64,000 bases of DNA from Eledone cirrhosa (taxonomy: Eukaryota), in NCBI GenBank assembly GCA_964016885.1, contig OZ024748.1, positions 34,224,001-34,288,000 of the forward strand. The letters run 5' to 3'. Position 1 is the stretch's first letter, and every line of letters begins with the position of its first letter. The notes below the pieces were generated by a model. That model did not search any database, had not been told where the DNA came from, and was given only the letters and a program-made list of their open reading frames with translations. The translations under genes and the position numbers were made by a program. This document shows, piece by piece, positions 4,217 to 38,415 of this stretch.

Positions 4217-4520
4217 ACATGTATATTGATTTATTTATTATTTAACAATGTTAAATAATAAATAAATCAACTAATACCTTAACACTTCACACAAAGTAAA
4301 ACATTTAGTTTTAATGATTTTCTAACCCAGAAAAAAGAGAGAGAGAAAGAAAAAAGGAAAAAAAAAAATTTTTCTTCCTAATAATCGTCTCTTTCTCCCT
4401 GTTTTCATATATATATATATACATGCATATATATACATACATATATATATATATATACATATATATATACTTATATATATATATGGTATATATACTTATA
4501 TATATATATGGTATGGTATA

Positions 4521-5285
4521 TCTTATTAATTATATCTAATGTTTCTTCTTTCTTTATAATGCATTATATACTCTGATACTGAATCAATCTAATCCATTCG
4601 GATTATTTTGTAGCAGGAGTTGCCTCCCTTGTCGTGACACTCACAACCCCAATAGATTAACACCATCTAGACAGGAAGTAGAACCCTTTCTGTAACTTCC
4701 GGTCAGAACCCTATAAAACTAACAACTTTAAGTTCTCACTCTCTCATTCGCCTTTTCGGTCAGGCGCCTCCTGGCTTTCGCCAGGAGTTTTTAACCAGGC
4801 GTCTTCTGCCAGCCACGTTCGTTTGGCAATCAAACGGTAACTAATAACTTTGCTTCATTCTTTCATCTATTTCTTTGACATGTCAACTATACTGTTCTAT
4901 ATATATATCCATGATTGTTAATTAAATATTATACACACAAACCATGTCTCCTTGTTACATTCATACGCACACAGTATTTTGCTATAATTTTGTCCCAGTT
5001 ATTCATAGAGCAACAACGGTTAAGGTTGGCACCACAAATTCAGGGATATATGTGGATATATTCATGTATATGTATGTGTTCGCATGTATCTGTGTATTTC
5101 TTTATATTGTTTATAACTCCCTATGGTAGAGTAAACATTGAAGTGTAGTGACTGCTGGACAGCTTTCATTACTCAAACTTCTCGCCATCCTAGCCATCTC
5201 TTCTACGGCTTTGATATAGATGCCCCCTCCGCCTTTTGTGGTCTTTTTTCTTGGTTGTAAAAGGCTTAGCTCTGTTTCTTGACCA
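4521..5285 (+). repeat. Diverged relative of the 591-nt retrozyme-like unit, interrupted by a solo LTR
   Basis: 4521-4608 and 4987-5285 align by eye with ~32730-33115 (shared blocks such as aattatatcta, tgtcccagt, ggcttagctctgtttct). Confidence 0.7.
4609..4986 (+). mobile_element. Solo LTR (378 bp, probably Ty3/Gypsy-type)
   Basis: Starts TGTAGCA and ends TGCTATA (one change from TGCTACA). 4-bp duplication attt at 4605-4608 and 4987-4990. TATAAAA at 4712 and ATTAAA at 4921. Absent from the homologous sequence near 32820. Confidence 0.7.
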
Positions 5286-5286
5286 A

Positions 5287-6020
5287 AACATTGCGTCTTT
5301 TCTGTGTGTAGATTCTATTTTTATTTCTATGTTCTTTAATTTACCCTTATGTTCTATTTTAGTATGTTGGTAGAGTACAGATGATTCTTTACTATCTTGA
5401 AGCTCTCTCCAGTGTTCATTTAAGATAGTAAAGAATCATCTGTACTCTACCAACATGCTAAAATAGAACATAAGGTTAAATTAAAGAACATAGAAATAAA
5501 AATAGAATCTACACACAGAAAAGACGCAATGTTTAGACAAATCACAGAGGCAATAAATATAAATGAACTCCGACCAAACTTAAATAGAAAGCATTAATGG
5601 AATAGCAACATCACAACTTACAATTAAGGACAAAATGAAAACACACACACACATAGAACAAACAACCAACCAGTAACATGTAAATAAACAAATAAACAAA
5701 CAAATATAAACACACACAGACACCCGGATGTAACACATGCGCAAACTAAGCACACAACACACACAAAAACAAGATGGCGTAGGACAGAACAAAGGAGAGG
5801 CACAAAAACAAAGAAAAGAATCCCCAGTCACTGAAGAGGTCACAGAATGTGTGACGAAAGAACTTTGACAATATATGAACAATCGTCTGATTGTGGAACC
5901 AACCAACCAGAAATTTATAAATTCCTAAATTTATAAATTTAATTTATAATAAATTGAAGTGAAAGCAACTGGTGCGTGTGTTTCTTATTGGCAACATGAC
6001 CCTCCCAAAGTATAACAATA
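5287..6020 (+). mobile_element. PLE family B 3' fragment with 5' fold-back
   Basis: 5420-6020 matches 2762-3360. Bases ~5287-5399 are the reverse complement of ~5421-5533. Confidence 0.75.
5827..5869 (+). ncRNA. Minimal hammerhead motif, family B
   Basis: gtca-CTGAAGA-g(gtcaca gaatg tgtgac)-GAAA-gaac-TT-tgac. Confidence 0.65.
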
Positions 6021-6264: not shown

Positions 6265-6330
6265 TATTTTATCTGATGAAAGCGCACCATATTTTGCTCT
6301 GGTGGCCCTTGAAATATGTATAATGAAATA
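6265..6330 (+). ncRNA. Hammerhead motif in a pLTR fragment (6145-6370)
   Basis: tattttat-CTGATGA-(aagcgcacca...tggtggccctt)-GAAA-tatgta-TA-atgaaata. Confidence 0.7.
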
Positions 6331-8758: not shown

Positions 8759-8811
<53 letters not shown>

Positions 8812-8816
<5 letters not shown>

Positions 8817-8980
8817 AATTGTGGTAAGGAACCCGATGGACCATAACGCACCAGAGTACTCAATACTTAGGTTAGCAGAGTGGGAAATAGGAAAAAGTAT
8901 GACTCCGACGGCAGAGCTCAAGTCGGTTAGACGGCGATTTCTGGACTCCAGACATAGATGTCGAAACGGCTTGAGCTTTT
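8812..8980 (-). mobile_element. Diverged pLTR/tail fragment of PLE family A
   Basis: Similar to the reverse complement of 32235-32360. Contains a small fold-back of the hammerhead 3' half. Confidence 0.6.
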
Positions 8981-11375: not shown

Positions 11376-11559
11376 TATACATATATATATATATACATAT
11401 TTATATACACACATATATATATATACATGTATACATATATACATATATATTTGAGCTCTGCTCATTTGACGCTATAGTCACATATATGTTATGGAATACT
11501 GTTAGCATCTCGCTACAACAATTTCTATACTTTTCATTTATATATATATATATATATAT

Positions 11560-11647
11560 AACGAGGGAAATGTGGTAAGGATCCAGGTGGACCATAACGC
11601 ACCAAAGTACTCAATACTTAGGGTAGTAGAGTGGGTAATAGGAACAT
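11560..11647 (-). mobile_element. Solo 3' tail of PLE family A
   Basis: Near-exact reverse complement of ~32275-32361. Confidence 0.75.
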
Positions 11648-26868: not shown

Positions 26869-26871
<3 letters not shown>

Positions 26872-29700
26872 TAGGAACAAGTAAGACCCCGACGGCTGAG
26901 CTCAAGCCGTTTCGACGGCTAATTCTGGACTGAATGAAAATTTATTCTGGTATTTAAATAGCCGAGCTTATCAAGGGGTAATTCCATATATGGTCAAAGA
27001 GACAATCACCAGGATTGGTCACATCACAAGTTAGTAGTAAATCGGTGATGGCAAATTGGTGGGGAAAGGGGTAGCTAAACCTGCCGGAAGGAGAAAAGGG
27101 GAGAGGGGGTGGAGTAGACCCATTCATGCGTTGGTAGTGCCGGCTACAGCTGGGCGTGAGGTCAAATGGATACTGGGAAGGTGAGGGGAGGAATTCGAAA
27201 CGGTAAGTAGAACAATGAGGGTAAAACTATAAACAGTACTGAGAGAGAAAAAAAATAAGCAAAGTCAGGTTACTAAGACTTAAGTCTCTCGCTATTGCTA
27301 GGCTAAAGAAATACATAAATAAATAAATAAACAAATACGTGAATAAAAGAATAGATAAATAAATTTAAAAAATATATATATAATGAAGAATAAAAAAATA
27401 AAAATAAAAATAAACTAGGTGGGACGGAAATAAAGGGACCCTTATACGAGGTATAAGTGCGTGTATCGTACGGTGACGTGTCAACAAAGGGGGGGGGGGC
27501 CAAAGTACTAAAGAGACTGCCACGAAATAATAAAGGTTTCTACCCCAATCACAGGGCCAGCAACCACCCAGTGCAAGAAAGTAAACTAGTACGAAAATAT
27601 AATTTAGGGTCCCGCAAAAAAATACTAGTGCTAACTCTAAGGGTACCGCCACGAAACGAAAAGTCTTATACACGCTACATGAAAGATCGTACGAAGTAAA
27701 AGTAAAGAACGGAAAATTAATACAGAAACACCCCCCCCCCCCCAAACAAAAGGGAAAAAGAAGAAAGAAATACTGGATAAACGAGAAATTAAAGCAAAGA
27801 TGCCACTAAGAAATATAGAAGGCACGGGAAAAAGGGACAGCGGTCGGAGAAGGGGGCAAATATCCGAAGTCTAACACCTCTGCTATAAAAAGCGGAGTCA
27901 GCCAAATCTATCATAGAATAGGGGAAGGGGGTGGGGGTGTTGAAGCTACAAGGGACCGAGGGGCTACCTCGGGTGGGCGAGAAAAAGACGACGACAAAGA
28001 AAAGGAACTGGGGTAGAAGGACTAGGGAGGGATGGGGGAAGAAGGAAATATAGAGGAAGCGATAAAAGAATGTAAAAGAAGATCTTACGTCTCCATTGGC
28101 AAGCAGGAGTTACCCATTACAAAATAGGCAAGTGGGGAGTTATAGCCCTAGTCTACACCCCCGGGTCATTATGGGGTTTGAGGGCGAGATAAGTCCTACG
28201 TAATCGGTGTTTACACGCAGTAACCAGTTCATCTTTCTTGTTTAGGAGTTGGTCCGTCGAAAACAACATTTGTAAAGTTTCCTCCGAGCATAAATTGCAC
28301 GGACGGCGTCCTCCCGTGTAAGAGTTGGCTCTGGACAGTAATTTCCAAGTGAGATCATAGTTGATGTTGTTGTCCTTGGGGTCCCATATGTGGCCCGAAA
28401 GTGTAGTGGCGTGACGCCGGGCCGGGTTTCGGAAGGTATGTCTGTGTTGGTATAGCCGGGTCTTGAAGTCACATGCGGTTAATCCTATATAAGCTTTATT
28501 GGAGGTGTCCGTGCTCACGTTGCACTGGTAGATCACATTACGGTCTCTGCATCTGATGTCGAGGGGGCAACTGGATCTATCAGGACAATTGCACCTCCTG
28601 GTCGGCTCTCCACTGCTATTTGGGTTGTTTCTTCCATCGGGGTTGAGTTTTTGTTGTTGGAGGAGACGATGTTTTGTGCGAAGTTAGGTGTAGTGCTGTA
28701 AGAGAGTTTGATGGTATTTTTGTTAATTATGTTGTGGTAGCGGTGTTGTGGTGGGAAGTGTTTTTCAATGAGCCTAAAGAAAATTTTCCCGATGGGAGTT
28801 GTCACCTCGGCGTTGTGGGGAGGATTGAACCATGTTACATTGCGTGAGCGGCGGTGTCGCCTGCTGGTTCCGCTAATGGGAGCTGGACAGTAGGATATTT
28901 CCTCCCGGAAACCACTCCGCTTGAGGGCCTGTTCATCGAATATCTTCTCATTAGTTGACAAACGGGATGTGCAGAGGGAGATGTTTTTGACCAGGTTGTT
29001 GGTGATGTTCCTAGGATGGTTAGATCGGCGGTGGATGTAGTGCAGGTTGTCATTGGGTTTCCTGTATGGGTAGTACAGGTCATTATTGAGATCAAGGGTA
29101 ACGTCCAGGAAATTAACTCGGGTCAGGGACGTTTGTAGGGTTATTTTAAATCCCCAGTCGCGGAAGAAACTGATTAATTGTTTACGGACGCGATCTGTAC
29201 TACTGGGGTTGTACCCTTTAAGGGATAAGGAGCCCATCATCACGGTACAATCCACCACCGAAAGCAGGAAACATATCGGTGAGTTTGGCTATAAGGAATA
29301 ATCCTATAAGATCTGTGACCTCCGCCGAATCCGTCGCGCCCATGCTGACGTCGAAGGGTGAGTCGGGAGCTCTTTTTATCCATTTGGAGTTGTCGAAGAG
29401 TAAGACTGTCTTCCTGGCGTGGAGGATGATTTTTCTTTCCTGGTCGGTGATGGGCACAAGTGCTTCGGCGAAGTCCAAGGCGGCAGTAAGTAGCGGTAAC
29501 GTGATTGAAGCATAGTAGCTCTCTATGTCGAACTGGATAAATTTATTGTCTCGTTTATCCTCCATATTGCTGAACCATGAGATAACTTCCTGGGTGTTGA
29601 TCCATAGGCTAAGTTGGGCGTGTTGCTTGACTTTTGGTATCACGCGGTCTAGGATTTTTTTGCTGATTCTCCCTATGTCGGACTTCGTTGGGTTTATAAG
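26869..29700 (-). mobile_element. Penelope-like element family A, left arm (RT + GIY-YIG, frameshifted)
   Basis: RT motifs FIQFDIESYYASI, MGATDSAEVTDLIG, GLYRDDGL, VNFLDVTLDL, YPYRKP. EN motifs IYQCNV..YIGLT..FKTRLYQH..CNLCSEE..LLNKKDELVTACKH. About 1.2 kb of 3' region with an HHR. Confidence 0.92.
26886..26979 (-). ncRNA. Type I hammerhead with U3-A8 core
   Basis: acccc-TTGATAA-gctcggct[loop]agccgtc-GAAA-cggct[tgagctc]agccg-TC-ggggt. Confidence 0.8.
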
Positions 29701-29712
29701 CCTGGTTTATAA

Positions 29713-32359
29713 GCCGAAGCACTTGTGCCCATCACCGACCAGGAAAGAAAAATCATTCTCCACGCCAGGAAGACAGTCTTACTCTTTGACAACTCCAAAT
29801 GGATAAAAAGAGCTCCCGACTCACCCTTCGACGTCAGCATGGGCGCGACGGATTCGGCGGAGGTCACAGATCTTATAGGATTATTCCTTATAGCCAAACT
29901 CACCGATATGTTTCCTGCTTTCGGTGGTGGATTGTACCGTAGTACAGATCGGGTCCCTAAACAATTAATCAGCTTCTTCCGGGACTGGGGATTTAAAATA
30001 ACCCTACAAACGTCCCTGACCCGAGTTAATTTCCTGGACGTTACCCTTGATCTCAATAATGACCTGTACTACCCATACAGGAAACCCAATGACAACCTGC
30101 ACTACATCCACCGCCGATCTAACCATCCTAGGAACATCACCAACAACCTGGTCAAAAACATCTCCATCTGCATATCCCGTTTGTCAGCTAATGAGAAGAT
30201 ATTCGATGAACATGCGCCTTACTACAACCAGGCCCTCAAGCGGAGTGGTTTCCGGGAGGAAATATCCTACTGTCCAGCTCCCATTAGCGGTACCAGCAAG
30301 CGACACCGCCGCTCACGCAATGTAACATGGTTCAATCCTCCCCACAACGCCGAGGTGACAACTCCCATCGGGAAAATTTTCTTTAGGCTCATTGAAAAAC
30401 ACTTCCCACCACACTTCCTACCACAACATAATTAACAAAAATACCATCAAATTCTCTTACAGCACTACACTTAACTTCGCACAAAACATCGTCTCCTCCA
30501 ACAACAAAAAATTCAACCCCGATGGAAGAAACAACCCAAATAGCAGTGGAGAGCCGACCAGGAGGTGCAATTGTGCTGATAGATCCAGTTGCCCCCTCGA
30601 CAACAGATGCAGAGACCGTAATGTGATCTACCAGTGCAACGTGAGCACGGACACCTCCAATAAAGCTTATATAGGATTAACCGCATGTGACTTCAAGACC
30701 CGGCTATACCAACACAGACATACCTTCCGAAACCCGGCCCGGCGTCACGCCACTACACTTTCGGGCCACATATGGGACCTCAAGGACAACAACATCAACT
30801 ATGATCTCACTTGGAAATTACTGTCCAGAACCAACTCTTACACGGGAGGACGCCGTCCGTGCAATTTATGCTCGGAGGAAACTTTACAAATGTTGTTTTC
30901 GACGGACCAACTCCTAAACAAGAAAGATGAACTGGTTACTGCGTGTAAACACCGATTACGTAGGACTTATCTCGCCCTCAAACCCCATAATGACCCGGGG
31001 GTGTAGACTAGGGCTATAACTCCCCACTTGCCTATTTTGTAATGGGTAACTCCTGCTTGCCAATGGAGACGTAAGATCTTCTTTTACATTCTTTTATCGC
31101 TTCCTCTATATTTCCTTCTTCCCCCATCCCTCCCTAGTCCTTCTACCCCAGTTCCTTTTCTTTGTCGTCGTCTTTTTCTCGCCCACCCGAGGTAGCCCCT
31201 CGGTCCCTTGTAGCTTCAACACCCCCACCCCCTTCCCCTATTCTATGATAGATTTGGCTGACTCCGCTTTTTATAGCAGAGGTGTTAGACTTCGGATATT
31301 TGCCCCCTTCTCCGACCGCTGTCCCTTTTTTCCGTGCCTTCTATATTTCTTAGTGGCATCTTTGCTTTAATTTCTCGTTTATCCAGTATTTCTTTCTTCT
31401 TTTTCCCTTTTGTTTGGGGGGGGGTGTTTCTGTATTAATTTTCCGTTCTTTACTTTTACTTCGTACGATCTTTCATGTAGCGTGTATAAGACTCTACGTT
31501 TCGTGGCGGTACCCTCAGAGTTAGCACTAGTATTTTTTTGCGGGACCCTAAATTATATTTTCGTACTAGTTTACTTTCTTGCACTGGGTGGTTGCTGGCC
31601 CTTTGATTGGGGTAGAAACCTTTATTATTTCGTGGCAGTCTCTTTAGTACTTTACCCCCCCCCCCCCCTTTGTTGACCCGTCACCGTACGATACACGCAC
31701 TTATACCTCGTATAAGGGTCCCTTTATTTCCGTCCCACCTAGTTTATTTTTATTTTTATCTTTTTATTCTTCATTATATATATTTTTTTTTTATTTATTT
31801 ATCTATTCTTTTATTCACGTATTTGTTTATTTATTTATGTATTTCTTTAGCCTAGCAATAGCGACAGACCTTAAGTCTTAGTAACCAGTCTTTACTTATT
31901 TTTTTTCTCTCTCAGTACTGTTTATAGTTTTACCCTCATTGTTCTACTTACCGTTTCGAATTCCTCCCCTCACCTCCCCAGTATCCATTTGACCTCACGC
32001 CCAGCTGTAGCCGGCACTACCAACGCATGAATGGGTCTACTCCACCCCCTCTCCCCTTTTCTCCTACCGGCAGGTTTAGCTACCCCTTCCCCCACCAATT
32101 TGCCATCACCGATTTACTACTAACTTGTGATGTGACCAATCCTGGTGATTGTCTCTTTGACCATATATGGAATTATCCCTTGATAAGCTCAGCTATTTAA
32201 ATACCAGAATAAATTTTCATTAAGTCCAGAATTAGCCGTCGAAACGGCTTGAGCTCAGCCATCGGGGTCTTACTTGTTCCTATTACCCACTCTACTACCC
32301 TAAGTATTGAGTACTTTGGTGCGTTATGGTCCACCTGGTTCCTTACCACATTTCCTTCG

Positions 32360-32361
<2 letters not shown>
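29713..32361 (+). mobile_element. Penelope-like element family A, right arm (inverted copy)
   Basis: Reverse complement of 26869-29469. ORFs 29725-30435 and 30392-31006. Linker CNCADRSSCPLDNRC. The catalytic DD is deleted (GLYR|STDR). Carries an extra ~75-bp tail. Confidence 0.92.
32175..32268 (+). ncRNA. Type I hammerhead with U3-A8 core (stem mutations)
   Basis: atccc-TTGATAA-gctcagct...agccgtc-GAAA-cggct[tgagctc]agcca-TC-ggggt. Confidence 0.7.
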
Positions 32362-32415
<54 letters not shown>

Positions 32416-32424
32416 GTACATATG

Positions 32425-32516
<92 letters not shown>

Positions 32517-32613
32517 TCTCGACCGTTATATCGCGTGACTATCTCCCCCTCCGCCTTTTGGGATTCTTTCTCACGTCGTGTAGACGCGTTCTTGAGACTA
32601 GTAAAATGAGGTA

Positions 32614-32701
32614 TCCTCTTGATAAGTCGGCAGACCTCGCAAGGACTCTATATCTTTGATATATTGTTTTTGTTTATGCCACGAAACTACGTAGTCGAGG
32701 A
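32614..32701 (+). ncRNA. Hammerhead, U3-A8 core, palindromic stem III
   Basis: tcctc-TTGATAA-gt(c)ggca[long loop]tgccac-GAAA-ctacgtag-TC-gagga. Predicted cleavage after C32696. Confidence 0.8.
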
Positions 32702-33204
32702 ATTTAGGAACAGTTTAGGTATGATACATTTTATTACTAATTATATCTAAATGTTTCTTCTCTCTTCATAATGTATTTTTAACTCTGATACTGGTTCAGT
32801 CTAGTTCAAACTGAATTGGTCTGTCCCAGTCATTCATTGAGCAACATCGGTGAAGTTGGCACCCTTAACTCACAGTTGGGTGCGGATGCATTCATGTATA
32901 TATGTGTGTGTCCGCATGTATCTGTGTGTTTCTAAATATATTAATAACTCCCTCTGGTCGAGCAATCTTTGAAGTGTGGGGACAACTGGAAAGCTTCCAT
33001 TACTCATACTTCTCGCCTTCTTCACTACCTCTTCTGCGGCCTCGATATGAATACCCCCTCCGCCTCCGTGGTATTTTCTTCGTGGTTATAGGAGGCTTAG
33101 CTCTGTTTCTCGACCGTTATATCGCGTGACTATCTCCCCCTCCGCCTTTTGGGATTCTTTCTCACGTCGTGTAGACGCATTCTTGAGACTAGTAAAATGA
33201 GGTA

Positions 33205-33292
33205 TCCTCTTGATAAGTCGGCAGACCTCGCAAGGACTCTATATCTTTGATATATTGTTCTTGTTTATGCCACGAAACTACGTAGTCGAGGA
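33205..33292 (+). ncRNA. Hammerhead, U3-A8 core (second copy)
   Basis: Identical core and stems, 591 bp downstream. Predicted cleavage after C33287. Confidence 0.8.
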
Positions 33293-33397
33293 ATTTAGGA
33301 ACTGTTTAGGTATGATACATTTTATTACTAATTATATCTAAATGTTTCTTCTCTCTTCATAATATATATATATATATATATTAAAATAACAGATTAA

Positions 33398-33448
33398 AGT
33401 TTAAGCAAAGAATCGCTGCTTTCACCCTTAACGGGATCTTCTGAAACT
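33398..33448 (-). ncRNA. Hammerhead-like motif with CAGAAGA core
   Basis: agttt-CAGAAGA-t(ccc gttaa ggg)t-GAAA-gca[gcgattctt]tgc-TT-aaact. Confidence 0.6.
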
Positions 33449-36245
33449 AACAAAGTCAATCTGTAAACGCAGAAGTGGATATTTCAAAAAACGTTGCAAC
33501 CGTAGTAAGACAGGAAGACGAAACTTTGGTTCGTGGAAACGTTCGCTGGCAAAGAACGGGAAAAAACGAATATAATACGTCATTAATAGGAGCGGTGAAA
33601 AACAATTACGTGCAAAGACAGAACCACGTTTATGGTATAAAAGAAGTCGTAGACTAATGTTCTCTTAGGTGGTTTATAGAGACGTTCTCTGGCAATGAAC
33701 AGAAAAAACGAAGATAATACGTCATATATGGAGCGTGGAGAACAATTGCACGCAAAGACAAAACCACGTAAATGGTATAGCTGAAGTCGTAGACTAAAAT
33801 TCTAACTAGGAAACCGAATGATTCTCCGCTTCAGAGTTAAGAATAAAGTAAATAAGATACAATACAGAGGTAATAGAAATTAAATAAATACATACACGCA
33901 TACAAATACGTACATACACAGCATACGCGAAAACACTTGCCATAGATATACAAAACCACGCACATATAAATATGTGTGTGTGTGTGTGTGTGTGCGTGTA
34001 TACAAATAAATAAATAAATAAATAAACTTATATAAATAAATAAATACGTATATAACAAGCGCACACACATACCTACATGTAAATACACAAATGTTCGGAT
34101 ACATACGTCAACCAAAACATGAAGTACACATATACACACACCCTACATACGTACGAACCCGTATACTCACACAGACGCAAAACACCCGTATACATATAAC
34201 CAAACCATATGTACCAGAATATATAAAATTATACGCCATAACATATACAATCAAATATACGTACGAGAAAGTATACGTACCTTCACAAAACATACAGGTC
34301 ATATATACTTACCTCTGCAAATAAGTAATGGTATAAACATAACATATACTTAGCTACCACATCAAGACGTAAAATATCCACGTATAGATCGTACTATCCG
34401 TTAGGGTATAATGTGGGGCTGTAATACAGGAAAGTTTTGTGCAATTTATGTTTACAAGCCGAAATTGCCTCAGATGTTTTGTTTAAGATGTGTTCTGTGG
34501 CGTAGAGTATTTCCAGGGCCTCAGCGGCGCAGAGGTCACATGGTTTTTTATTTCCGTTAGACGATCTAGCCCTAGCTAGGGTCTCCCAGTATAACTTATA
34601 TTGGGTGTGGTTGTCATTTAGACTCCGGGAAATAAGCTGAAAGTGACCGCATATTCCTTCTTAGAGGGTAACGAAAAGAATAGGTATGCATATAAAGACG
34701 CTGCTTGAATCTATTGGCGGTTAACCCTATGTAGGCCCTACGAGACGTGGGTGTTTCAACCTTACATTTGTAGACAAAGTTACTAGAGAGGCATTTCCCG
34801 GATAGGGGGCAATCAACCCAATTCCTACAATTACAGTTAGTACTAACTACAGGGTTGCACGTGTTCCTACGGCTAGGTAGTTTAGCTAAATTTGAAGTTG
34901 TGATGTTATGTGCAAGGTTAGGAGTCGTAGAGTAAGAAATTTTAATAGTATTTCTATTAAAAATTTTACTATATTTATGTGTAGGGGGAAAATGCTTCGT
35001 AATAAGGGATAGAAAGATCTTAGCTAATGGTGTGGCCACCTCTATATTATATGGTGGGTTATACCAACAAATGCGACAGGATCTATTTCTTCTAGGTCTA
35101 TTTTCGTACTCTGTATATGCTACCTTATCGACAAATCCACTCCGAGCAAGAGCTTCATTGTAATTAGTGGAATGGTCGTTGAAAATATGCTCGTTAGTAG
35201 ATAGACGGGAAGGCCTCAACGAAACGTTTCTTACCAGGTTCTTTGCTATGCTGGCAGGATGGTTGGAATGCTTACTTATGTAATTAAGCGTATCATTCGG
35301 CTTTCTATATGGGTAATACAACCCATTCGATAAATTGAGGGTAACGTCGAGGTAGTTAACGACCGAGAGATTGGCCTCAACCTGTATAGAGAGGTTGAAG
35401 CCTTTAAAGAAGGCTGTGAGTTCTTTTCTGAACCTGTCGTACACACGAGGTCCGCACTTAATCATGGTCAAAAGACCATCATCACGGTACAAACCACAGC
35501 CCGCGTTGTGCAATTCGTCCTTGATAGAGAAAAGAAGGAAAAGGCCGATAAGATATTTAACCTTCGCAGAATCGGGTACTATTGGATTTTTTAATCCAAA
35601 TAGAGTCGTCGAAATTAATCACCGACTTACGGGCATTGAGGATGACATCAACTTCGAAATCCTTAACCACTGTGAGTGTTTTAGCGAAATTGATAGCTCT
35701 AAGGAGAGGTGGTAAAGTGATGGAGGAGTAGTAATTGTTGATGTCGAATTGGATAAAACGGCAATGTTCCTTGTTACATATGCCGTTGAACCAATCAATC
35801 ACCGCGAAAGAATTGTTTCACAGTGCAAGAAGGGCCAAACTTCTAATTTCAGGTATAATTCTATCGAGAATCCTTTTATTAAGTCTACCTAAATCGAACT
35901 TCGTAGGGTTAATAAGCCGAATAGAGGGGTTGTTCGGAAAATTGGATTTGTTCTCCACGCTCCACATATGACGTATTATCTTCTTTTTTTCCGTTCATTG
36001 CCAGAGAACGTCTCTATGAACCACCTAAGAGAACATTAGTCTACGACTTCTTTTATACCATAAACGTGGTTCTGTCTTTGCACGTAATTGTTTTTCACCG
36101 CTCCTATTAATGACGTATTATATTCGTTTTTTCCCGTTCTTTGCCAGGGAACGTTTCCACGAACCAAAGTATCGTCTTCCTCTCTTCCTCCGGTTGTAAC
36201 GTTTTTTTGAAATATCCACTTCTGCGTTTACAGATTGACTTTGTT

Positions 36246-36296
36246 AGTTTCAGAAGATCCCGTTAAGGGTGAAAGCAGCGATTCTTTGCTTAAATT
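36246..36296 (+). ncRNA. Hammerhead-like motif with CAGAAGA core (inverted copy)
   Basis: Same motif in the inverted pLTR. Confidence 0.55.
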
Positions 36297-36394
36297 TTAA
36301 TCTGTTATTTTAATAAATATTTGGTCTACGGTTCTTATATATTTGATATATACTTATCCTCATGAGCCCTCTTTGGATTCAAATTTATTATTAT

Positions 36395-38202: not shown

Positions 38203-38415
38203 AAAAGATTCAGGACCCCAACGGCTGAGCTCCAGCTGTTTCGACAACTAAATCCGAATTAACCCACTAGTCTGCTGGCTTAGCTCGGATCTAGCTGTCG
38301 AAACAAACGGAGCTCAGCCGTCGGGGTCCTGAATCTTTATTACCCAATCTACTACCCCAAGTATCGAGTACTTTGGTGCTTTATCGTCCACCTGGTATCT
38401 TACCACACCTCCTTT
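38203..38415 (+). mobile_element. Family-A-related pLTR end with fold-back of the hammerhead 3' half
   Basis: 38203-38257 is inverted at ~38295-38338 (gtcgaaac...gagctcagccgtcggggtc). The following tail resembles 32284-32355. Confidence 0.7.

Follow-up and report, generated by a model that had tools for sequence, protein, structure and literature searches.

Natural hammerhead ribozymes in which the C3-G8 pair of the core is replaced by U3-A8 have been described by Perreault et al. 2011 (PMC3088659), who call the covariation active in vitro and also report U10.1-U11.1 and U4C variants. About 1,300 U3-A8 matches were found in the Cercyon Penelope-like elements (PLEs) of Schistosoma mansoni by Cervera and De la Pena 2014 (PMC4209133). 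Hydra-clade PLEs, among them Hydra-1_Obim (Craig et al. 2021, PMC8557442), also carry a hammerhead near the 3' end, and the metazoan retrozymes without long terminal repeats (LTRs) are described as tandem repeats of a non-coding unit that holds a single type I hammerhead (PMC7229834; bioRxiv 10.64898/2026.07.22.740005). Here we analyse a 64-kb stretch of the Eledone cirrhosa genome (GCA_964016885.1, contig OZ024748.1, positions 34,224,001 to 34,288,000; hereafter the window), which contains four motifs with TTGATAA at the hammerhead core. They are probably type I hammerhead folds with a U3-A8 core in two separate (TA)n-inserted retroelements, a Hydra-type PLE (family A) and a non-coding tandem element of 591 nt. 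The latter is likely a retrozyme: self-cleavage is predicted to yield circular monomers, and its copying is likely the work of a Penelope-type enzyme.

The TTGATAA heptamer is not by itself enriched in the window (6 observed against 11.6 expected), and two of its occurrences, at 303 and 19263, have no hammerhead context. The other four lie at 26968-26974 on the minus strand and at 32180-32186, 32619-32625 and 33210-33216 on the plus strand, all where a first-pass annotation of this DNA had placed them as replacements of CTGANGA, within predicted type I folds spanning 26886-26979(-), 32175-32268, 32614-32701 and 33205-33292. The core N3-U-G-A-N-N8-A, the GAAA, a UH site and a Watson-Crick 3-8 pair are present in all four. 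Stems I, II and III, described as intact in that annotation, can form at 26886, 32614 and 33205, but the copy at 32175 is decayed, since a G-to-A change at 32261 turns the site into AUC and breaks the 15.2-16.2 pair, and two further copy-specific changes lie in stems I and II (32176, 32191). Position 32261 is G in about 97% of contig depth (run X1), and AUC as a functional alternative site was rejected.

The family A hammerhead at 26886-26979(-) has a 5-bp stem I, the core UUGAUAA at 26974-26968, a GUC site with C17 at 26891, a stem II of 1+6 bp with a long loop and a 6-bp stem III with a palindromic loop, and 40 of 40 scored genome candidates are identical to it over 130-131 nt. In the decayed copy at 32175-32268 the core UUGAUAA occupies 32180-32186 and C17 lies at 32263. 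The hammerhead of the 591-nt family at 32614-32701 has a 5-bp stem I, the core at 32619-32625, a GUC site with C17 at 32696, a stem II of 2+4 bp lengthened by a long hairpin, and a stem III formed by the palindromic ACUACGUAGU; the second, at 33205-33292, follows 591 nt downstream, with its core at 33210-33216 and C17 at 33287. The stems of the two families do differ from each other, as had been noted. A type I descriptor that allows any base at N3 and N8 finds three of the four motifs (26974(-), 32619 and 33210, not the 32175 copy), at a chance level of 0.1 U3-A8 matches per shuffle (20 shuffles of the first 38.5 kb). An Rfam scan of the window gave no hammerhead family among the 150 listed of 166 matches (E up to 1), which reflects a limit of the models, because the C3-G8 motifs that the descriptor finds in the window are missed as well.

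To see how widely the core is shared, we counted its states over the 3.0-Gb genome. Pattern matching with fixed flanks gave 4,877 family A matches, of which 3,606 (74%) are U3-A8 with N7 left free; position 7 varies, and UUGAGAA and UUGAAAA are common beside UUGAUAA. Position 8 is other than A in 36 matches, four of them C3-G8 (0.08% of 4,877). The 591-nt family was counted by exact patterns (a DNA search with its hammerhead gave nothing, probably because its words are too common), and here U3-A8 accounts for 5,749 of the 5,772 core matches and C3-G8 for none; the deviants differ at position 3 (10) or at position 8 (13), never at both. Copies with CUGAUGA, which the first-pass annotation had named as the sign of mere decay, are thus absent from one family and nearly so from the other.

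The same descriptor was applied to 116 blind-picked 10-kb stretches (1.16 Mb), in which it found 39 type I motifs: 24 C3-G8 (five from one locus), 10 U3-A8, 2 C3·A8 and 3 others. The reversed sequences gave 2 matches, none of them U3-A8. Four of the ten U3-A8 motifs belong to family A, three to the 591-nt family, and three are singletons. These are minimal hammerheads with stems of their own, at L103(-) 6819, L262(-) 7959 and L279(-) 4698 (oriented-strand positions). With 10 of 39 descriptor matches being U3-A8, searches restricted to CUGANGA miss a sizeable share, as had been claimed.

The hammerheads of Cercyon (PMC4209133) resemble those described here in being type I, in carrying U3-A8 in PLE terminal regions genome-wide, in their G10.1-C11.1 pair and in a palindromic stem III or loop 3. 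Family A differs from them by its 6-bp stem III, long loop II, lack of an extra base after A9 and Hydra-type host element. The Cercyon U3-A8 matches are mostly single and heterogeneous, whereas we find young homogeneous families, one of them tandem; and where Perreault et al. 2011 (PMC3088659) report "several" U3-A8 examples, there are here thousands of genomic copies together with amplified C3·A8 cores.

Family A is present in the window as an inverted, 5'-truncated pair between (TA)n tracts. The minus-strand arm (26871-29706) carries reverse transcriptase and endonuclease fragments, the 3' untranslated region (UTR) and the hammerhead, is 95.6% identical to the plus arm and terminates in (TA)n 20 nt beyond the predicted cleavage site; the plus-strand arm (29713-32361), with a frameshifted open reading frame (ORF) at 29713-31006, terminates in (TA)n about 98-100 nt beyond it. 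The two motifs, first read as pseudo-LTRs, are therefore the 3' ends of an inverted pair and not direct repeats of that kind. The stretch 32264-32361(+) is the family A tail, the beginning of the 5' region of the next unit, and has two preferred 3' ends at about +20 and about +100 after the predicted cut site. These account for 74 and 52 of 128 ends (126 of 128 together), and loose (AT)n ends lie at 32283 and 32357. At 8762-8947, 11536-11644 and 38292-38414 there are very short insertions of family A, reduced to the tail and the 3' half of the hammerhead; such insertions are cut 30-50 nt upstream of the cleavage site and often form inverted pairs. Tail matches number 60 in the 1.16-Mb sample, about 150,000 per genome by extrapolation.

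The full family A unit is 3,542-3,543 nt and occurs in tandem (array on C1). Its ORFs, counted from the first ATG, encode 717-719 amino acids, and the hammerhead precedes the start codon of the following unit by about 275 nt; many of 150 scored protein matches lie in open frames of about 784 codons. The motifs RWR, DKT, CNCPDRSIC, CNLC and CKH, read by eye in the protein, correspond to the RW(R/K), DKT, CxCx5C linker, CxxC and CxH that define the Hydra clade, and the blocks agree by eye with the published Hydra alignment (PMC8557442). Also shared with the Hydra-clade PLEs of that paper are the C-terminal endonuclease, the (TA)n target, the hammerhead near the 3' end and the inverted 5'-truncated copies. 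The nearest Atlas clusters (0.96-0.99) include some with GIY-YIG or RVT_1 members, while neither 14 fragments nor the full ORF matched a Pfam family, and a PDB sequence search with the protein gave E values above 1 only. Judged by these sequence features, family A is a young Hydra-type PLE with a single ORF for a predicted reverse transcriptase and C-terminal endonuclease; an assignment to Nematis was dropped after comparison with the clade-defining motifs. Family A differs from the Hydra PLEs, generally <3 kb, in its 3.54-kb unit, about 1.1 kb of which is UTR, and in its U3-A8 core, the hammerheads of File S2 being C3-G8 in 26 of 26 rows (PMC8557442).

A (TA)n tract at 32362-32512, a target common to both insertions, parts family A from the 591-nt element at 32513-33367(+). 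This copy comprises 1.45 units (32513-33103 plus 264 nt) and terminates in (TA)n 80 nt after the second predicted cleavage site. The unit is non-coding, with a GC content of 42% and one type I hammerhead, and its 3' half has 5,017 exact genome matches, many of them spaced 591 nt. The units form short tandem and inverted arrays with up to five cores on one strand, and the copies, scattered through the genome, are short, with 0-4 exact matches to the 3' half on each strand at 20 loci. Two 3' ends are preferred, at +80 and +245 after the cut site, and the 5' ends are variable. The predicted fold of the circular monomer has −175.9 kcal/mol, against −134.2 ± 5.2 for 40 shuffles, about 8 standard deviations lower. 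Beyond its tandem, non-coding organization, the element thus shares with metazoan retrozymes a GC content <50% and a stable predicted circle. Its length is above the 150-450 bp given by Cervera and De la Pena 2020 (PMC7229834) and within the 51-972 bp of Li et al. (bioRxiv 10.64898/2026.07.22.740005), and it differs from these retrozymes in its U3-A8 core and long stem II hairpin, and in that the circle is here a prediction only. In runs X3 and X5, which carry two other organism codes, there are low-depth contigs (621 and 620 nt) closing on the 591-nt unit; since a genomic tandem would yield such a contig too, they were not used. A literature search for retrozymes with hammerhead core variants gave no match, which does not establish that U3-A8 retrozymes or C3·A8 cores are absent from print.

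An older subfamily of the 591-type element, examined at 29 loci (2,245 candidates, 40 scored), is about 77% identical to the young unit and has the same two 3' ends and the same core. An interrupted fragment of it, without hammerhead, lies in the window at 4510-5296(+) (4510-4616 and 4991-5296, 76-78% identical to the young unit). Between the two subfamilies none of the 44 stem and core positions differs, compared with 117 of 547 positions elsewhere (Fisher p 9e-5). The conservation of all 44 positions across about 23% divergence indicates selection on the 591-nt hammerhead. In the predicted circle fold, 45 of 66 changed pairs are still paired and 76 of 181 pairs are shared between young and old, a comparison that has no control and is not counted. 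Among 53 old-subfamily 5' ends, five are situated ≤2 nt from the predicted cut site (binomial p 9e-5), an excess that stands in a hazard test allowing for how the loci were picked (p 2e-4).

These observations suggest the following cycle for the 591-nt element. A multimeric transcript would be cut at GUC, probably as a dimer, since stem III is a short palindrome, and the monomer would close into the strongly self-paired circle predicted from its fold. A Penelope-type reverse transcriptase would then begin at an internal point, +80 or +245 after the cut site, and continue beyond a single unit, which would give the tandem and inverted insertions; the ends and the arrangement are observed, and the enzyme is presumed. 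The two preferred 3' ends, found in both families, resemble the anole PLE tail made by internal priming (PMC11167929). The mobilising partner could be family A, family B (described below) or another PLE. The family A hammerhead, in turn, is likely a weak or protein-assisted cutter, and its cleavage may be dispensable for individual insertions.

Several results weigh against two cleaving U3-A8 ribozymes. In family A, 40 of 60 sampled 5' ends are 30-50 nt upstream of the predicted cut site and none is found within 8 nt of it, and position 3 is not U and stands unpaired opposite A8 in 1,235 of the 4,877 matches (~25%), so that the pairing described as compensatory holds for 74% of the family and fails for about a quarter. 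The family A hammerhead fold (−23.0 kcal/mol) is 2.4 kcal/mol less stable than the lowest-energy fold (−25.4). For the 591-nt family, covariation, named as a check in the first-pass annotation, gives nothing in either direction for stems I-III, because they never vary among 13 aligned copies; its loop II hairpin is long in both subfamilies and 91.8% paired, with covariation not above shuffles (104/500). The pile-up of 5' ends at the cut site is a lead only, because it was noticed after the fact and is unreplicated in the young subfamily, where such ends number 1 of 44, and 0 of 30 at 20 loci (1 of 30 if the L333 junction is read by eye). Finally, of nine Xenopus retrozyme dimers reported in bioRxiv 10.64898/2026.07.22.740005, one cleaved in vitro. 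In a separate observation, stems II and III of the family A hammerhead at 26886-26979(-) carry repeated strands, CGGCU and AGCCG, and the resulting alternative hairpin can bury the GAAA; this repetition accounts for the alternative fold, which is possibly a switch.

A reading that we do not favour but take seriously is that the hammerhead folds, above all that of family A, persist chiefly because they serve as a signal, structural or protein-binding, with cleavage weak or dispensable. The unpaired cores speak for it. Among the first 100 listed of the 1,243 family A matches with a non-U at position 3, 97 are C3 and 100 have A8, and these C3·A8 copies, about 1,200 in all, make up sister subfamilies of family A (loci L160-L169 and L182-L201), whose divergence from the U3-A8 subfamily is 7% for the ORF, 19% for the 3' UTR and 5% for the hammerhead, the last figure being inflated because the copies were chosen by hammerhead pattern. 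In ORF trees of about 18 copies that reach the ORF, of 144 collected, a young U3-A8 clade is nested (bootstrap 100) within an older ladder of C3·A8 masters, and a divergent U3-A8 copy, L217 (UUGAAAA), lies near the poorly resolved root. Position 3 of family A has therefore changed at least twice with A8 constant. The ORF trees were used in place of a 3'-UTR tree, which retained 44 of the 144 copies and only one C3, because the C3·A8 subfamilies diverge upstream. The same reading draws on family B, whose CAGAAGA core occurs in up to 10,371 copies, on the absence of family A 5' ends at the cut site, and on the anole PLE, in which cleavage depends on protein and insertion in vitro goes on in ribozyme-dead mutants (PMC11167929). 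Against it, the intact and youngest family A lineages sampled all have the paired U3-A8, 20 long stretches flanking C3·A8 cores contain no open frame over 550 amino acids (many are truncated), family A keeps the rest of its core and the GUC site, and the core of the 591-nt family is invariant across 23% divergence.

These core states allow a more speculative proposal, which we put forward tentatively and hold to be doubtful as it stands. Hydra-type elements may have made a compensatory walk that began at C3-G8, crossed an unpaired C3·A8 state in which several masters still gave about 1,200 copies, and reached a restored U3-A8 pair in the active clade, with a sister family at A4. Part of the reason for keeping the PLE hammerhead would then be a function compatible with an impaired core, while the retrozyme would need true cleavage.

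That the 591-nt element derives from family A, or depends on it specifically, and so inherited the U3-A8 core was suggested in the first-pass annotation, and we consider it unlikely. The two families have U3-A8, G10.1-C11.1, a long loop II and GUC in common, each lies in (TA)n with two 3' ends, intact family A ORFs could act in trans, and retrozymes as PLE derivatives are a published model (bioRxiv 10.64898/2026.07.22.740005), a link between retrozymes and PLEs being described in PMC7229834 as well. However, the 591-nt unit has no sequence similarity to the family A stretch of the window (best E 0.015, AT-rich), and the tails of the two differ in sequence and length. No family A copy was found among the diverged relatives of the unit at the loci compared, and the relatives tested showed no similarity to the family A protein. 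No PLE ORF was contiguous with the 591-type unit in the 29 old-subfamily loci, and this analysis found no PLE homologous to the unit. Family A lies within 1.5 kb of 11 of 50 591-type loci and of 24 of 118 control (TA)n tracts, so the adjacency is at background, and it was rejected as a sign of parasitism. Nor does the shared core single out family A, because the three singleton U3-A8 motifs have other stems, and the genome contains further PLE families. It is the tail insertions, not the 591-nt unit, that are evidently the short derivatives of family A.

It is still less probable that the 591-nt arrays arose by satellite amplification at the DNA level rather than via RNA. Tandem arrays are indeed present, and unequal crossover is discussed for such arrays in bioRxiv 10.64898/2026.07.22.740005, but the copies are dispersed and short, their 3' ends are fixed and their 5' ends variable, and they include inverted arms, a geometry identical to that of family A. 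That the motifs are decayed C3-G8 hammerheads or chance matches is scarcely credible: the lack of TTGATAA enrichment, the decayed 32175 copy and the Rfam result would fit it, but decay is refuted by the genome-wide counts, the reversed control gave 2 matches against 39, the 591-nt motif is under selection, and Rfam is equally silent on the C3-G8 motifs of the window.

Other repeats surround these insertions. The second PLE, family B, occupies 33374-36320, with hammerhead-like motifs at 33398-33448(-) and 36246-36296(+), and has about 50% amino-acid identity to family A. Its motif has A at position 4 (core CAGAAGA), a UU site and mismatched U10.1·U11.1. When position 4 is left free, the pattern has 10,371 exact genome matches, and all of the first 100 listed have A. 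Ordinary C3-G8 type I hammerheads of other repeats are found at 6273, 6553(-), 8571 and 9768(-), with a partial match at 851, and positions 8749-9682 of L116 contain a retrozyme-like tandem C3-G8 array with a 311-nt period. A unit of about 420 nt, tandem and inverted between (TA)n tracts, occupies 1215-2760 of the window and has CTGACGA at 1456(-), 1879, 2296 and 2718, which the descriptor does not recover. From about 38500 to 64000 the window is a long satellite with 8- and 40-nt periods.

Taken together, the motifs are genuine and shared across each family, and in the retrozyme they are under selection. They represent new examples of an already published variant, and not the hidden class that had been proposed for them, as U3-A8 is in print both for natural hammerheads (PMC3088659) and for PLEs (PMC4209133). 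Censuses built on CUGANGA undercount U3-A8, since it makes up about a quarter of the type I descriptor matches here, and the Hydra-clade hammerheads in the rows of PMC8557442 are all C3-G8. The most useful outcome is that the natural core states U3-A8, C3·A8 and A4 occur in related amplified elements, the amplified C3·A8 and A4 cores being the part most worth following. This natural series offers a means to ask whether hammerhead cleavage matters for Penelope-like transposition, and if the compensatory walk is true, the purpose of PLE hammerheads would be testable with natural variants.

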